From: an uncultured Methanosarcinaceae archaeon
GTDB taxonomy: Archaea > Halobacteriota > Methanosarcinia > Methanosarcinales > Methanosarcinaceae
Length of the DNA: 64,000 nt
Assembly (NCBI GenBank): GCA_963727895.1
Contig: CAVSHT010000005.1
Location: 432,601-496,600 of the forward strand
Reading direction: 5' to 3'
Every line of letters starts with the position of its first letter. Positions within the stretch are counted from its first letter, which is position 1. The notes under the pieces are model-generated. The model saw nothing but the letters and a program-made list of their open reading frames with translations. It was not told the DNA's origin and did no database searches. The translations under genes were made by a program, and so were the position numbers. This document shows positions 18,828 to 52,871 of the stretch, one piece after another.

Positions 18828-19241
18828 TTAGTGGTAGTATTTATTATAATTGTTGTAAAAATTGTGATAACCGCTGTACCAGCTGTTATATTTTGAGTAC
18901 CAGCCGTTATATTTTACCAATCACGCCATATACATTTTGTACCAGTTATCATAATTTTTGTCGTGTTTCTTGTGGTTCCACTCATTCTTTTGTTTGTACC
19001 AACTGTTCTTTTGTCTGTCCCAACTGTTCTTTTGTCTGTCCCAATCGTTCTTTTGGTTGGTCCAATCGTTCTTTTGGCGATCCCAATTATTCTTTTGTTG
19101 GTTCCAATTATTTATATCCCCAGTATTCTTCCCACCATTATTATATGCATTATTTGGAGCTGCACTTACTGCTGCAACTGTCACTGACATTACAAAACAA
19201 AATGCCAGCAAAATTCCTAGTATCTTTCTCATTTTCAGCAT
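18828..19241 (-). pseudogene. Secreted Trp-heptad repeat protein with an in-frame TGA at 18921-18923
   Basis: Signal peptide MRKILGILLAFCFVMSVTVAAVSA; 21-bp repeats (WDRQKNS); frame continues after TGA to TAA at 18828. Confidence 0.75.
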
Positions 19242-19931
19242 TTTATTTACCCCATATATTTGCTGTTTAGATAGCCTTCCTTTATTTTCTTAACTATCTC
19301 GCTGATTATTCGCAGCTTGACAATCCTAAAATGAACAAGTTAAAATAGAAACATACTTATAAATATAAATTTATAAAAGATTGATTATTAATAAAATGGG
19401 AATTTTTAAAAATTTAATTAATAAATTAACTATTTGGTATTGTTACTTAAATATATCTAGTTCTTTATTTCTGTATTTCATCAATAGAATAACCGAGTAC
19501 TTTAGCATTTCAAGACTTTTTTATAACACTTTGTCTTTCTTCTCAATCTTGCTAGAAAGTGCCTCAATATGCTGTTATATCCCTCAACTGTAAATGTTTC
19601 TGCTTTGGATTGAGTATGAATCGTTTCTGGAAGAAACTCTGCATATGCCCTCCAGTGATCTGTCATCACTTCTCCAATGTCTTTTTTCTTCAATTTTTCC
19701 CAGAGTAGTTTTCCAGTTTCCGTTCCTCTACTACCAAAAGAACAGTTGATGAACTTTTTCCCAACTCTATCAACAGCAATCCAGATCCAGCAATATTTTT
19801 TTTGTTACCGATGTAAGTGTGCATTTCATCCATTTCAACAATAGATATTTCATTTTCACTTTTTAGAGCCTCTAACTCCTGACCAAATTTCTTTATCCAT
19901 TTTTGGACAGAAACGTGACTTACCCCTAAAA

Positions 19932-21458
19932 CGCACATGCTTTTCTTCGAATAACAAGCACAACTAATGAAAGTACTCTCCGCCCTTTTTTTGACTATTA
20001 AGCCCTCATTACCTTGGGCAGTAAGGTTGTCTCGATTTTGGTTTTTCAAAACCGTCCTAAAACTAATCAGTGAATTGCCATCGAAGGCTCAAGTGTGACT
20101 TTGATCACGGATGCTAAATTGGCCTTTTAGGCAATTCCACTGCCCAAATAAATTTGGTGATCTAATTTGATTGAAGTAATAACAAAGCTTGTGGTTTAGA
20201 CATTCACAAACTCTTTTTCATTGCTACAATTTTCAGTAGATCTGGTGAAAAACAACAGCAACGTTTCAACAGAGATGATGAAGGAATTTTAGCCCTTAAA
20301 AATTGGGTAATATCAGAAAAATGTGATGTTGTTGCATGTGAATCAACCAGCGACTTTTGGGTTCCGATTCATGATTCATTGGTAAAGCATCTAACTGTGA
20401 TAGTTGGAAATGCGCGAGATATGAAGGTATTTACCCATACAAAAACATATAAGATTGACTCAGAAGTCATTGCACAACTTGCACTTAATAATATGATTCA
20501 GCCATCAAGAGTTTTTCCAAAGGATCATATAGATTTTAGATCATATGTTCGACTTCGGTTAACACTTGTACAAAAAAGAACAGATTTAAAAAATAAAGCT
20601 CACTCAATTCTTGCATCTGAAATTCAATTCTTGCATCTGAAATGCTACACCTGAATAATGTGCTGACAGACGTTTTTGGCAAGAATGGCAGAATGATCTT
20701 ATTAGGAATCTCTTCAGGTAAGAGTGTTGGTCAGATTATTGCAAGCCTCTCTCCAAATGTTCGGAAAAAAGCTGCTCAGATAAGAGAAATTCTTGATCGA
20801 GAAATTTCTCAAAGTGCTGCATTCAGACTTCAGATCTGTCTGAAACTCATAAAAAGTCTTGATGATGAACTCGAAGCTTTAGAAACAGAAATTTTCAATT
20901 ATGCTTCTCGAAATCATAAGCGAGAAATGGAGATTTTAATGTCAGTTCCAGGTATAGGGGAACTTGGTGCGGCAATTTTACTTGCTGAAATAGGCAACTT
21001 TAAGGATTTTTCTTCTGGAAATAAGCTTGCTTCTTGGCTTGGTCTAGTTCCTAATGTGTATCAATCTGCAGATAAATACTATAACGGCAGAATCACAAAG
21101 AGGGGATCAAAAGTAGCAAGGTGGATTCTGACACAGATTGCTCAAGCAGCAGCAAGAAAGAAGAATAGCAGGTTAAAAGAGTTTTTTAACAGAAAAAAGA
21201 AGTCGATTGGACATGCAAAAGCAATTATTGTCTTAGCAAGGAAAATTGCAACGATACTATGGCATCTTATTACAAACGATGAGATGGACGAAGATGAAAC
21301 CGGATATCAAAAGGGAGAAATCCAAAAGAGAAAGATTATTGAGACTGAGATTTTTTCGGTTGATGAACGGATTAAAATAATTAGTGAAATATTTGCGATT
21401 ATGGGGAAAAAGGATCAAGAGAGCACGTGAGGATAATCTCCTCATGTACTTTCATGCT
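19932..21458 (+). mobile_element. IS110-family element copy 1 (transposase about 20167-21430, frameshifted)
   Basis: GLDIHK, CESTS, KT(Y)KIDS DEDD RuvC-like motifs; SVPGIG, WLGLVPNVYQS, ITKRGS C-terminal motifs; junctions defined against intact IS1. Confidence 0.93.
20014..20147 (+). ncRNA. Putative bridge RNA of IS110 copy 1
   Basis: Closing stem TTGGGCAGT/ACTGCCCAA; two internal-loop arms containing target-matching CCTAAAA and donor-matching ATGCTAAA. Confidence 0.65.
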
Positions 21459-21792
21459 AAAATCTTCCTATTGAGCGAAAGCCCAATCCTTCAAGATAGA
21501 GTTGTAAAGCCTGTCTTTTTACAGAAGCGGAAAAAGCAGTTGATTTTAGCTCTACTGTATAGTTATAGCCACAATCATGACATTTGTAGCGTTGACGCCC
21601 GCCAACTATACCGTTCTTTTTGTGACTGGAACTATTACATCTGGGGCAGTTCATGAAGAAATATAGGTTCTCAGAATAAATAACTATGTTTAAGTATCAA
21701 TGCCATAATTTCAAAATAGATATATCTTATATTCGTGCAATAACTACAGGTAGAATAATCTGTAGATAAAATTAGCGACGGGTGAACCTGGA

Positions 21793-22404
21793 ATGGAGTC
21801 AACAAAAAAAGATGAAACTTTAAAAGCGCTGGTCATTATAGATATGACTAACGATTTCGTGTATGAGACATACGAACATGAAGGTACGTTATATGAAGGA
21901 AAACTTGTAGCTCCTATGGGAAAGGAAATAGTCGACAAAATAGCCAGGTTAATAATTAAAGTAATACGTGAAGGAACTGTCAGCATTATCAGGCTTCCGA
22001 AGGATCATCTCAATGCCTTTATGAATCCCGAACTTGAACTGAAAGTTGCAGAACTGGGAATCAATGAAGTATTTATAACAGGCTTGGTTGAGGAAGTTTG
22101 CATATACATTAATAGTCTGAGTTTCCTTGAAAGAGGTTTTCGAACAAATATTGTGAAAGGTTGTACAGCACCTTTTGATGAAGAAAAAGGGAGAGAGGCT
22201 TTCAGGGAACTTACAAAATGCGGAGCAAAAATGGTTGAAGATATTCCTGAAGACATAAAGGTTATCCTGCTCCTCGAAGATCAACACGATGAAAATTCCG
22301 AAGAAATAAAGTCCGGAGACTGGCCACCCCATAATATGAAAGGAACCCCTGGAGCCATGACCGTAAAGATAATCCGGGATGTGCTTGAGGGAAGGAATAG
22401 TTAA
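21793..22404 (+). CDS. Isochorismatase/nicotinamidase-family cysteine hydrolase, rearranged motif order
   Basis: IIDMTNDF (D17), K70, GLVEEVC (C103); DQH..WPPH..GTPGA at the C-terminus. Confidence 0.85.
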   Translation: MESTKKDETLKALVIIDMTNDFVYETYEHEGTLYEGKLVAPMGKEIVDKIARLIIKVIREGTVSIIRLPKDHLNAFMNPELELKVAELGINEVFITGLVEEVCIYINSLSFLERGFRTNIVKGCTAPFDEEKGREAFRELTKCGAKMVEDIPEDIKVILLLEDQHDENSEEIKSGDWPPHNMKGTPGAMTVKIIRDVLEGRNS

Positions 22405-22865
22405 AATATATCAATTTTCTACAGGGAAAAATTTCTAGCTTTCTATAACCTATTTAGATATATTAAGGGAGCCACATTTGATTATTCTCTATTCAATAAA
22501 TAGCATAAGAATCAGTTCTAATTTGAACTTTTAGTGTCTTTATTTTCAAGAATGTTTTTTGATTCCGTTTTTGTGATTTCATATTTAAACTGAATGACTA
22601 AGCTACCTACATTACTTTCAGGTGGAGTTATTGTTGGGGTAAAGATTGCCATATTTACAAATACTCCCAGAGTTATTAAGAGAAAATCATAACAACAATA
22701 ATAAAGGCAATTTTTATAGTTCCTTTATTCATAACTACCACTGATAATAAATTATGATGTATCAAGTTATGATGTCAGCTTCTCAATATGTGGTAATCTT
22801 CTTTATGCATTACAAAACTGGAAGTTTACGCATTTATTTCTGAAATCTCATACTTCTGGATCTTC

Positions 22866-24362
22866 TTAGTGGTTTTGCCTATTATTTTCATCTTCAAGGT
22901 TTTCAAAATCCTCAAAGTCCTCATTTTTGTTTTGTTTTTTAAAGGTTTTATTTTTCAGACTAAGTGCCACTATAAAAACTGCAAGTAAAAGAACTATAGG
23001 GAATCTAAAGAAATGAAGCAATTCAGGAAGCTTTATTGAATTTTCTGTAGAATTTGATTCATCTGAAGTATGATTGATTTCACTTTTTGTATTGCCAGCC
23101 ACATTGCTTGAAGAGTTTGGAACAATCTCAACTATATTTTCAGCACTTCCAGTTGTTACCAAACCTCCTTTTAGCGGCAGGTCAGTTTTTGCTTCTTTAT
23201 CGAGATATAAGTTTTTGAGTCCTTCACTTGAAAGAAAACGTGCATCTCCAAAAAGCCGTGCAAAAACTGTAGAATTCCGCTCAAAAAGATATGCTGCTCC
23301 ATCTTTACTTCCCGCAGCAAGGATCGAACTATCGCTGGAAATTGCTATGCTGTTAATGTTTCCCCTACTACTATAGTTCCAGAACTCCTTTCCTTCCATA
23401 TCAAGGACGTAAAGACTGTCATCCCAGCTTCCAGCTGCAATAAACGATTCATCTGGAGAAATTGCAACACAATAGACATCATCTTTTGTCTGGTAATCCC
23501 AGAGTTTAGTGCCTGTATTGTTAAACAGATAGACTTTATCGTCAAAACTTCCGGCTGCAAGATATGATCCATTGCTTGTTAGCGAAACACTGCTGATCCA
23601 GTAAGCAGGATTGTGAATCCACGAAAATTCTCCTTTCTTAGTGAGGAGATAAACATTATAATTAGATCCTCCGGCAGCTACATAAGTGGCTTGCGGAGTC
23701 ATACAGACGCTATTGATTACACTGCCCGTCCTTTTTTCCCATAGTTTATTTCCTCTGATGTCAAAGAGATAAATACATTGATTGGAACTGCCAGCTGTAA
23801 TATAAGATCCATCTTTAGACATGGCTATGCTTCGGATGGAATCTTTTGAATCAAAACTCCATAAAAGCTTTCCTTCTCTATTGAAAAAGTAGATCTTACC
23901 GTCTTCGCTGCCTGCTGCTACATATGAACCATCAGAAGAGATTTTAACACCATTCAGACTGCCTCCTGTTTCATAACTCCATAGCAGGTTTCCTTTTCTG
24001 TCAAAGCAGTATACTTTCTTATCATTGCTCCCTGCGGCTATAAGTGTTCCATCAGGAGAAATCGATACACTGTAGACAACGTCTCCTGTAGTGTAATTCC
24101 AGAGTTTCGTCCCCTCTAAATTAAAAAGAGAAACATTATGATCAAAGTCTCCAATTGCAAGATAGTTTCCCCCTGAAGAAAGAGAAACCGTATTGATTAT
24201 ACATCCGGTTTCACATTTGCAAAGCAGGTCAAAAGCCCCGGATTCCGAATTGTTTGTATCCTCATGATTCAGAATTACGGGGTCTGCAGTTCCTAAATAT
24301 GCAAACAGACCGAAGAGCAAAACCAGTGCTAGAAATACCCATATTCGCGCTGACTGTCCCAT
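22866..24362 (-). CDS. WD40/PQQ-like beta-propeller, secreted and membrane-anchored
   Basis: About 8 repeats of SVSISxDGxYIAAGSxDxKVYLFxxxGxxLW; signal peptide and C-terminal TM. Confidence 0.9.
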   Translation of the reverse strand: MGQSARIWVFLALVLLFGLFAYLGTADPVILNHEDTNNSESGAFDLLCKCETGCIINTVSLSSGGNYLAIGDFDHNVSLFNLEGTKLWNYTTGDVVYSVSISPDGTLIAAGSNDKKVYCFDRKGNLLWSYETGGSLNGVKISSDGSYVAAGSEDGKIYFFNREGKLLWSFDSKDSIRSIAMSKDGSYITAGSSNQCIYLFDIRGNKLWEKRTGSVINSVCMTPQATYVAAGGSNYNVYLLTKKGEFSWIHNPAYWISSVSLTSNGSYLAAGSFDDKVYLFNNTGTKLWDYQTKDDVYCVAISPDESFIAAGSWDDSLYVLDMEGKEFWNYSSRGNINSIAISSDSSILAAGSKDGAAYLFERNSTVFARLFGDARFLSSEGLKNLYLDKEAKTDLPLKGGLVTTGSAENIVEIVPNSSSNVAGNTKSEINHTSDESNSTENSIKLPELLHFFRFPIVLLLAVFIVALSLKNKTFKKQNKNEDFEDFENLEDENNRQNH

Positions 24363-50199: not shown

Positions 50200-50806
50200 T
50201 TATTTTCGCCTTATTTTTAATTTATTTATTTTTTGATTCATTTGTTTTTTAATTCGTTTGTCAGTAGGTTGAAACCGGCAAATCTATCCAATACTATTAA
50301 AACTTTCTAAATTTTTGATAATTTATATTCTGGCCTGAATATTGAGGATTTCTACAGAGCCGAAAAAAGGACAATAATTTAGTTTCCATACCCTCCAAGT
50401 AGTTTTATATTGTACATTAGCTATAAATCACTAAAATTGATTAAAGTCTATTTGAAGGCAGATAGTTGAAAGTCTTATGACATATGAAGAAATTATAATA
50501 ACTAGGAGTACAACTATAATAGGTACAATTTTGGGTGCAATTCTAGGATATAAGTTTTCTGGCATTGGTAATTAAAAATAGATATATATGCTTATAACAT
50601 ATATTTCTGCATGAACTGCCCAAAATGTAATAGTTTCAGTCACAAAAAGAATGGTATAGTTGGCGGGCGTCAACGGTACAAATGCTCTGATTGTGGATAT
50701 AACTATACAGTAGAGCTAAAATCAACTGCTTTTTCCGCTTCTGTAAAAAGACAGGCTTTACAACTCTATCTTGAAGGATTGGGCTTTCGCTCAATAGGAA
50801 GAGTTT

Positions 50807-52302
50807 AGCATGAAAGTACATGAGGAGATTATCCTCACGTGCTCTCTTGATCCTTTTTCCCCATAATCGCAAATATTCCACTAATTATTTTAATCCGTTC
50901 ATCAACCTAAAAAATCTCAGTTTCAATAATCTTTCTCTTTTGGATTTCTCCCTTTTGATATCCGGTTTCATCTTCGTCCATCTCATCGTTTGTAATAAGA
51001 TGCCATAGTATCGTTGCAATTTTCCTTGCTAAGGCAATAATTGCTTTTGCATGTCCAATCGACTTCTTTTTTCTGTTAAAAAACTCTTTTAACCTGCTAT
51101 TCTTCTTTCTTGCTGCTGCTTGAGCAATCTGTGTCAGAATCCACCTTGCTACTTTTGATCCCCTCTTTGTGATTCTGCCGTTATAGTATTTATCTGTAGA
51201 TTGATACACATTAGGGACTAGACCAAGCCAAGAAGCAAGCTTATCAGCAAGTAAAATTGCCGCACCAAGTTCCCCTATACCTGGAACTGACATTAAAATC
51301 TCCATTTCTAGCTTATGATTTCGAGAAGCATAATTGAAAATTTCTGTTTCTAAAGCTTCGAGTTCATCATCAAGACTTTTTATGAGTTTCAGACAGATCT
51401 GAAGTCTGAATGCAGCACTTTGAGAAATTTCTCGATCAAGAATTTCTCTTATCTGAGCAGCTTTTTTCCGAACATTTGGAGAGAGGCTTGCAATAATCTG
51501 ACCAACACTCTTACCTGAAGAGATTCCTAATAAGATCATTCTGCCATTCTTGCCAAAAACGTCTGTCAGCACATTATTCAGGTGTAGCATTTCAGATGCA
51601 AGAATTGAATTTCAGATGCAAGAATTGAGTGAGCTTTATTTTTTAAATCTGTTCTTTTTTGTACAAGTGTTAACCGAAGTAGAACATATGATCTAAAATC
51701 TATATGATCCTTTGGAAAAACTCTTGATGGCTGAATCATATTATTAAGTGCAAGTTGTGCAATGACTTCTGAGTCAATCTTATCTGTTTTTGTATGGGTA
51801 AATACCTTCATATCTCGCGCATTTCCAACTATCACAGTTAGATGCTTTACCAATGAATCATGAATCGGAACCCAAAAGTCGCTGGTTGATTCACATGCAA
51901 CAACATCACATTTTTCTGATATTACCCAATTTTTAAGGGCTAAAATTCCTTCATCATCTCTGTTGAAACGTTGCTGTTGTTTTTCACCAGATCTACTGAG
52001 AATTGTAGCAATGAAAAAGAGTTTGTGAATGTCTAAACCACAAGCTTTGTTTATGACTTAAATCAAATTAGATCGCCAAATTTATTTGGGCAGTGGAATT
52101 GCCTAAAAGGCCAATTTAGCATCCGTGATCAAAGTCACACTTGAGCCTTCGATGGCAATTCACTGATTAGTTTTAGGACGGTTTTGATAAACCAAAATCG
52201 AGACAACCTTACTGCCCAAGGTAATGAGGACTTAATAGTCAAAAAAAAGAACGGAAAGTACTTTCATTAGTTGTGCTTGTTATTCGAAGAAAAGCATGTG
52301 CG
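50807..52302 (-). mobile_element. IS110-family element copy 2 (defective transposase)
   Basis: Near-identical to 19932-21458; same 20-bp duplication, an in-frame deletion, early TAA. Confidence 0.93.
52086..52219 (-). ncRNA. Putative bridge RNA of IS110 copy 2
   Basis: Same stems and guide segments as 20014-20147; the one difference I found is in a hairpin loop. Confidence 0.65.
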
Positions 52303-52871
52303 TTTTAGGGGTAAGTCATGTTTCTGTCCAAAAATGGATAAAGAAATTTGGTCAGGAGTTAGAGAACCTAAAAAGTGAAAGTGAGATATCTATTGTTGAA
52401 ATGGATGAAATGTACACTTACATCGGTAACAAAAAAAATATTGCTGGATCTGGATTGCTGTTGATAGAGTTGGGAAAAAGTTCATCAACTGCTCTTTTGG
52501 CAGCAGAGGAACAGAAACTGGAAAACTACTCTGGGAAAAATTGAAGAAAAAAGAGATTGGAGAAGTGATGACCAATCACTGGAAAGCATATGCAGAGTTT
52601 CTTCCAGAAAAGATCCATACTCAATCAAAAGCAGAAACGTATACTGTTGAAGGATATAACAGCATATTGAGGCACTTTTTGGCAAGGTTGAGAAGAAAGA
52701 CAAAGTGTTATACGAAGAGTCTTGAAATGCTAAAGTACTCGGTTATTCTATTGATGAAATACAGAAATAAAGAGTTAAATATGTTTAGTTAACAATACCA
52801 AATATTATTCTATTTGTTGTTACAATTAATAAGAAATGTATTAATATAAGTTTTACTTCAAGTAAAATGTC

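Follow-up and report, generated by a model that had tools for sequence, protein, structure and literature searches.

The question raised by this locus is whether a short non-coding stretch of a methanogen transposon tells that transposon where to insert. The window considered here, i.e. the whole stretch of 64,000 nucleotides from an uncultured Methanosarcinaceae archaeon, carries an insertion sequence (IS) of the IS110 family whose left non-coding end was proposed, in an original prediction made from the letters alone, to encode a bispecific bridge RNA with a target loop and a donor loop. The answer is largely in favour of this proposal, since both a covarying fold and three guide-DNA covariations were found, with a guide order reversed relative to that of IS621. 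Positions 20014 to 20147 of the plus strand thus very likely encode a guide RNA of the bridge (seek) type that belongs to a methanogen IS110-family element, and the evidence that decides for more than chance is the comparison with relatives. We infer the RNA nature of the product, its expression, its binding by the recombinase and the order of strand exchange. The mechanism itself is already known from bacteria and is very probably at work here in methanogens, with its guides in reversed order.

The element concerned (copy 1, 19929-21461, plus strand) is non-autonomous, measures 1.53 kb with both AAA core copies counted, and interrupts an IS1-like element of the minus strand (window 19502-20049 and 21457-21654) that was recognised by a PF03400 match. 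The left target half CCCCTA and the left AAA core copy (19929-31) occupy positions 19923-19931 in the IS1-like host, as judged from a table of 21 copy junctions and from uninterrupted IS1 sites. The right junction (21453-21469) is composed of the left-donor CATGCT, the AAA core (21459-61) and the right target half ATCTTCC. In full, the left junction reads CCCCTAAAA followed by CGCACATG (19923-39) and the right one CATGCTAAA followed by ATCTTCC (21453-69). Copy 2 (50804-52305, minus strand) is lodged inside another IS1-like copy, with CTCTTCC as right flank. The source genome assembly (3.67 Mb, 19 contigs, 84% complete) contains 21 near-full copies plus fragments, which have in common CTAAAA before CGCACATG on the left and CATGCTAAA before N on the right. 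Left junctions before GCACATG read CTAAAAC in 18 of the 21 copies and CTACAAC in two, the left end being cut off in the last one.

The candidate RNA of 134 nt is predicted to contain six helices according to a covariance model (R1) and its pair counts. A closing stem, P1 (20014-22 with 20139-47, TTGGGCAGT and ACTGCCCAA), would hold two arms with an internal loop in each. Arm 1 is made of a basal stem, P2 (20025-29 with 20064-68, GGTTG and TAATC, proposed by RNAalifold), and of the hairpin P3, GGTTT-TTC-AAACC (20040-44 with 20049-53). Arm 2 comprises P4 (20072-79 with 20130-37, GAATTGCC and GGCAATTC), P5 (20084-88 with 20122-26) and P6 (20094-98 with 20105-09). The closing stem, the hairpin, the loop segments, the second arm and the junctions described in the original prediction were all found in place, and the RNA of copy 2 (52086-52219, minus strand) keeps these features with a single different base, located in the hairpin loop. 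The RNA lies 20 nt upstream of the recombinase start codon. A 141-nt stretch (20010-20150) folds better than its shuffled versions (z = -3.0), none of 200 shuffles folding as well.

Relatives were gathered with a protein-based scan of genome contigs that gave 54 loci, in which recombinase identity to the window element is about 80% in Methanosarcina, 54% in Methanospirillum and Methanoculleus and 41% in Methanoperedens, and the left ends of these relatives align with that of the window. The model R1 has 140 positions and 37 pairs, and the 103 matches used for the pair test, in 100 loci, comprise 66 distinct sequences. Among the latter, compensatory changes on both sides were observed in 34 of the 37 base pairs, and 85.8% of the cells were paired compared with 69.5% after shuffling, a level that none of 500 shuffles reached. 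Pairing fell to 34-46% when the partners were slid. The alignment of the pair test had been fitted to R1, a bias towards structure, but the predicted fold still finds support in the slid controls and in how many different pair types occur. For P2, the GGTTG/TAATC pair is swapped for GCCG/TGGC in two relatives (RNAalifold). Finally, G-U pairs are frequent (GU in 53 of 66 sequences at one pair, UG in 58 of 66 at another), which suggests folding of the recombinase strand, as expected for an RNA read from it. In one relative (L101:1404-1633), about 90 extra nucleotides lie within the target-loop hairpin.

In a sample of 151 genomes of the class, R1 has matches in 57, in two families (18 of 67 and 37 of 74 genomes); in a sample of 151 genomes of the phylum it has matches in 12, spread over several additional families. 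The source genome is counted in both totals. On the two bacterial plasmid loci that carry the closest recombinases (33% and 27% identity), R1 gave E values of 0.17 or worse, all within coding sequence. In parallel, short contigs binned as bacterial metagenome-assembled genomes (Oricola, Deltaproteobacteria, Cloacimonadota; L040, L061, L062, L068) were found to carry the methanogen-type element together with its RNA, which may reflect either mis-binning or transfer.

The loop of arm 1 would read the insertion site. Its 5' side, TCTCGATTTT (20030-20039, plus strand), is a candidate antisense guide for the core and the right target half and would pair with top-strand AAAATCGA, whereas its 3' side, GTCCTAAAAC (20054-20063, plus strand), is a candidate sense guide that spells the left target half and the core. 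The two guides would overlap on the A-run, the proposed place of strand exchange. More precisely, the letters TCGATTTT at 20032-39 stand 5' of CCTAAAA (20056-62) and are complementary to AAAATCGA, a sequence that agrees with the IS1 variant CCCCTAAAAATCGTCC. GATTTT (20034-39) and CCTAAAACT (20056-64), the two loop segments of the original prediction, are indeed present, and both of their limits had to be revised: the 5' guide is longer, extending to TCGATTTT, and, given the basal stem P2, the last T of CCTAAAACT sits within a stem and not in the loop.

The guides were tested by taking, for each junction, the best ungapped guide match within a fixed region and by comparing the element's own guide with those from every other family. 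Junctions with less than 135 nt of upstream sequence and exact duplicate flanks were left out, as were, on the right side, loci without a locatable right end. The left flank matched its own guide over 7.16 of 8 positions on average against 5.69 for the others, a result equalled in none of 10,000 permutations (92 junctions, 33 guides). The match was 8/8 in 43 of the 92 junctions and 7/8 in another 27, and the own guide was best or joint best in 55. In the same way, the right flank matched its own guide over 6.8 of 10 positions against 5.44 for the others, again with 0/10,000 permutations as high (60 junctions, 28 guides), and the matches devoid of A-richness include AATGTGGGT, AAACGG and GTCACAGA. 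Inspection by eye agrees with these figures, as the loop segments follow the flanks in every family that was looked at: a loop with CAGAAAAC goes with a left flank AGAAAAC, and loops with GATAAAAC, ATTGAAAC, CACAAAGA and TACGAAAC stand beside left flanks of the very same letters. Hence the two checks that came with the original prediction, a covariance model of homologous ends and loop covariation, turned out in its favour, with three loop segments tracking the DNA. As to the case that would have spoken against it, namely identical loops at different insertion sites, the loops were seen to differ and to match their own flanks.

The third guide lies in the loop of arm 2, whose 3' side GATGCTAAATTG (20110-20121, plus strand) is a candidate sense guide that would read ATGCT, the right end of the element, together with the core (AAA). 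Within it, ATGCTAAA (20111-18) matches the reconstructed circle junction, as had been predicted, and its match to the right end covaries in relatives: right ends matched their own guide over 7.48 of 8 positions against 5.57 for other guides, with 0/10,000 permutations as high (33 ends, 15 guides), a value that is biased upward and partly circular because resemblance to the donor guide entered in part into the choice of the right-end anchor. Unbiased evidence for this guide is available from four clusters in which copy comparison had fixed the ends. Their donor 8-mers, ATGCTAAA, ATGCCAAA, ATGGGAAA and ATGTGAAG, are the last 8 bases of the right end, the identity holding in the ATGTGAAG cluster for three of the seven copies with a readable right end, the other four having GTGGAG. 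Donor 8-mer and right end are in agreement in the window family and in Methanospirillum as well.

The 5' side of the donor loop, TCAAG (20089-20093, plus strand), is too short to serve as a guide, and its letters show no covariation with those of the donor. Across relatives this side has 4-5 nt, and TCAAA occurs in five families with the right-donor triplets GCA, ACA, GTA, GAA and GGA. The absence of a convincing second donor guide, already remarked in the original prediction, was borne out by a formal search that began at the left end and reached 45 nt beyond the RNA, in which an antisense right-donor guide scored 7.75 for own against 7.70 for other families, with 1807 of 5000 permutations as high, and a sense guide scored 7.75 against 7.88, with none tracking.

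The end next to the RNA gene would therewith be left without a guide, and it is probably recognised through an invariant AAAC, a fixed CATG, a terminal hairpin and sub-terminal inverted repeats. This left end indeed has the invariant AAAC together with CATG or TATG at a fixed distance. It opens on a degenerate hairpin or palindrome, noticed by eye (19936-19959, plus strand), which in relatives takes the form CATG, stem and CATG. The 10-bp repeats are ATGAAAGTAC on the left (19967-19976, plus strand), the reverse complement of 21446-55, and GTACTTTCAT on the right (21446-21455, plus strand), which is kept in relatives. They lie 35 nt inside the element end on the left and 6 nt inside on the right, and the pair covaries in relatives (CATGAAAAAC with GTTTTTCATG, ATGGAAAACCA with TGGTTTTCCAT). 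As a separate observation, the first 25-30 nt of the left end (19936-19959 in the window; L063, L136, L143 and L150 among relatives) read CATGA-stem-loop-stem-TCATG with covarying arms, and this hairpin is located at the unguided donor half. By eye, its arms change on both sides across families, as in GAGGC/GCCTC, GATCC/GGATC and GAGCA/TGCTC.

What the RNA is aimed at can be appreciated in the source genome, where the IS1-like element is present in more than 200 copies. Three types of IS1 site were distinguished: CCCCT, AAAA and CTC (type a, 143 uninterrupted and 3 occupied), CCCCT, AAAAA and TC[GT]T (type b, 58 uninterrupted and 6 occupied) and CCCCT, AAAA and TC[GT]T (type d, 5 uninterrupted and 5 occupied). 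Uninterrupted IS1 sites with three A do not occur in this genome. The alignment of a target CCCCTA-AAA-N with a donor CATGCT-AAA-CGCAC is preferred because it is the only one that fits both the IS1 sites and the right junctions. The predicted offset between a target with four A and a donor with three agrees with these site counts. Types b and d, which agree with the right guide, were occupied in 11 of 74 cases and type a in 3 of 146 (Fisher p = 5e-4), a difference that is only suggestive because the copies are not all independent events. Furthermore, the perfect 11-mer CCTAAAAATCG has 48 occurrences in the source genome, 45-46 of them in IS1, so that the programme directed against IS1, as claimed in the original prediction, is correct as far as the perfect site is concerned; yet three of the 21 copies lie outside IS1 on both sides. 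The site encodes the residues GRFLGV, which belong to the DNA-binding portion at the N terminus of the IS1 protein. The idea that it might be the insA/insB frameshift site was rejected, since the site codes for GRFLGV and the change of frame occurs further on, at an A-run (GGTAACAAAAAAAATATTGC).

In detail, the flanks are IS1 on both sides in nine of the 21 copies, one IS1 and one non-IS1 in eight, and non-IS1 on both sides in three, which are found at CTAAAA sites; the remaining copy has a truncated left end. The eight copies with mixed flanks show that element copies have recombined with each other. Two diverged copies (C4:52540-54049 and C4:31680-33196, 93-95% identity) were observed to carry guides unlike those of the window, TACTAAAAC with TCTTTATTTT in the former and CATAAAAC with TCCTGATTTT in the latter. 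The guide TACTAAAAC of the former matches its non-IS1 left flank ATACTAAAAC, but its right flank is IS1 and its right end does not match, and this copy is for that reason considered a recombinant between copies.

The recombinase gene that follows the RNA is a pseudogene in the window (20167-21430, plus strand), with a TTG start, a 1-base deletion that brings codon 11 to a stop, and a tandem duplication of 20 bp around 20603-42. This duplication, with a ATTCTTGCATCTGAAATTCA-type unit, breaks the frame in both copies of the window (20603-20642 and 51598-51637), and in copy 2 codon 3 is a stop and 32 bp are deleted in addition. As judged by length, 17 of the 21 copies carry the duplication, among them copies at non-IS1 sites, which indicates that the defective element has spread; presumably such copies were moved in trans. 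The best open frame among the copies encodes 390 aa and ends about 26 residues short of the end of its relatives. It contains the Pfam domains PF01548 (DEDD_Tnp_IS110, 2.5e-17) and PF02371 (Transposase_20, 3.6e-26), and its matches in the Protein Data Bank are IS621 (3.6e-9) and ISCro4 (6.6e-8), the match to IS621 being confined, at the sequence level, to the C-terminal domain. Non-coding stretches amount to 238 nt 5' of the start codon and 31 nt 3' of the stop.

How does this system compare with IS621, the described bridge RNA element? As in IS621 (PMC11208160), the RNA gene occupies the left non-coding end, ahead of a recombinase with DEDD and Tnp domains, two internal loops serve target and donor, and two target guides on opposite strands overlap at a short core. 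In IS621, handshake guides are described 3' of the right guides, where they pair with the non-cognate DNA after strand exchange, and the bases beside the 3'-side guides of the methanogen RNA match the non-cognate partner in a comparable manner (PMC11208158, for the IS621 side). Thus loop 1 reads CCTA-AA-AC, i.e. left target, core and first bases of the element, so that the last one or two bases of the 3'-side target guide match the first bases of the element, and loop 2 reads ATGCT-AA-AT, i.e. right end, core and first bases of the right flank, the T directly after the donor guide being the first base of most right flanks. The C or AC of loop 1 and the T of loop 2, one or two bases after each 3'-side guide, would accordingly be handshake-like bases with the same role as in IS621. 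Differences are also evident. The guide order is reversed in both loops of the window RNA, the segments with top-strand letters standing on the 3' side of the hairpins, and a single donor guide is found where both donor halves are guided in IS621 (as described in PMC11208160). Moreover, both arms of the methanogen RNA lie within one closing stem, its core is A-rich (AA or AAA) and not CT, the element has 10-bp sub-terminal inverted repeats and the host is an archaeon. As regards the size of the core, the window alone would fit two bases and three bases alike, whereas the GCGG-AA-AC and ATAGG-AA-T of the L112/L113 family leave a 2-base core AA.

Viewed on the opposite strand, the arrangement would become the IS621 plan, with the left target guide 5', the right target guide and its handshake 3', and the right donor guide and its handshake 3', so that, with the recombinase gene as reference, the system would mirror IS621. 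This reading of the other strand, made by inspection of positions that vary little, is the IS621 arrangement minus one donor guide. A fuller version, in which a three-guide mirror-image system makes its first strand exchange on the DNA strand opposite to the one used by IS621, relative to the genes, recognises its unguided end through hairpin and repeats, is intermediate between IS110 and IS1111, inactivates IS1 and lets its defective copies be moved in trans, can be offered tentatively at best and is more probably wrong in some part. If it were true, a three-guide clade would have one programmable donor half fewer, and a system aimed at an IS1-like helix-turn-helix coding region would be a case in which one transposon specifically inactivates another.

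The most serious competitor to a distinct methanogen arrangement is that this is an ordinary IS1111-group element, of a type already described, in which the RNA has shifted to an upstream position. Sub-terminal repeats of 7-17 bp are a trait of IS1111 elements, and in their seekRNAs the complement of the top strand comes first, the IS110 type being reversed (as stated in PMC11187229). The window element shares both traits, a 10-bp sub-terminal inverted repeat and a top-strand complement 5' of the bottom-strand match, and in both systems family members that differ have different targets matched by their RNA (PMC11187229, for the IS1111 side). The position of the RNA is a difference, as the methanogen RNA lies upstream of the recombinase gene whereas the IS1111 non-coding region is usually downstream; still, PMC11187229 mentions a few upstream exceptions such as ISMtsp17, so that this position is in print for some IS1111 members. 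The protein may also speak against such an assignment: IS1111 transposases are given as 330-350 aa (PMC11187229), compared with 390-416 aa for the methanogen recombinases, and the match to the IS1111-group IS4321 is limited to residues 251-320, i.e. about 70 residues, whereas unnamed IS110-family genes match over 93% of the length (up to 93-97%). The motif GL-P----S was considered as a marker of the IS110/IS1111 subgroups and put aside, being common to IS621 and this protein. In sum of these traits, the window element appears to combine the guide order and repeats of IS1111 with the RNA position of IS110, and an ordinary IS1111-group identity is possible but on the unlikely side.

Much less probable is a structured 5' leader that would merely control translation or stability of the recombinase mRNA, the matches to the flanks being due to chance. 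The region does stand directly 5' of the start codon (20167), and no terminator separates the two; its guides are short and rich in A, and the fold of a longer, 247-nt stretch is unremarkable (z -0.89). On the other hand, the loop letters covary with DNA outside the element in 33 left-guide and 28 right-guide families, the G/C-rich ones included, at 0/10,000 permutations each, which makes a mere leader very improbable; a combined role as leader and guide is possible. A last view, in which the guides act as single-stranded DNA in the way of IS200/IS605 guide sequences, fits with all evidence being at the level of DNA sequence but is the least probable of all, since relatives within the recombinase family are described as using RNA (PMC11208160, PMC11187229), many pairs are G-U, for which DNA would have weaker G-T pairs or, on the other strand, A-C mismatches, and the recombinase has the DEDD and Tnp domains of bridge recombinases and not an HUH fold.

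Several points nevertheless weigh against a bridge RNA gene, in addition to the partial circularity of the donor test given above. The guides are short and, in many families, A-rich, and unrelated guides already average 5.7/8. The IS621 plan has four guides, of which one seems to be missing here, as the search found none. An Rfam scan of 19000-23000 gave 0 matches at E up to 1. Recombination between copies with mixed flanks means that the occupied sites are not all independent events, so that the independence of copies is uncertain, and a fully intact recombinase gene was not found in the 84%-complete assembly. Neither promoter nor terminator has been established for the candidate RNA. Contigs from RNA libraries of related organisms do cover the region, one of 179 nt spanning 20006-20161, but such contigs (from four runs, the run search having given small shares of 0.07-0.09) show neither a transcript nor its ends or strand. 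Regarding the promoter, a T-rich box around 19983-96, 25-30 nt 5' of the closing stem in Methanosarcina-type copies, was tried and rejected because its spacing differs elsewhere.

With these points counted, a bridge RNA gene is still the reading that best accommodates the covariation. A bridge RNA has been predicted for 85.7% of the IS110 and 93.0% of the IS1111 entries of ISfinder (figures reported in PMC11208160). A paper on archaeal IS110 elements lists 662 archaeal recombinases, their RNAs not being characterised in the portion of that paper available to us (10.1101/2024.06.21.599552), and a literature search for IS110 bridge RNAs in Methanosarcina or other methanogens found none. More recently, a 2026 preprint clustered the RNAs beside bridge recombinases of bacterial and archaeal genomes, and, in this survey (10.64898/2026.10.21.760802) as in that of PMC11208160 (its Fig. 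6), many bridge RNA structures depart from IS621 and yet covary with target and donor. Large surveys have probably already met this methanogen family.

What the family adds is of several kinds. About 30 naturally reprogrammed guide sets across methanogens form a natural specificity table. Guide order and RNA position would appear to be separable, and one donor guide may be lacking; both points are of interest for the evolution of IS110 and IS1111 layouts and for the smallest possible set of guides. With its more than 200 IS1-like copies, the genome would also offer a tidy case of one transposon being targeted by another. Finally, a native programmable recombinase would be useful in methanogens, for which few genome-engineering tools exist.

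Upstream of the element, a repetitive stretch with overlapping open frames on both strands was noticed at window positions 18893-19293. Its minus-strand frame has a signal-peptide-like start that is followed by WD(R/T)QKN repeats.

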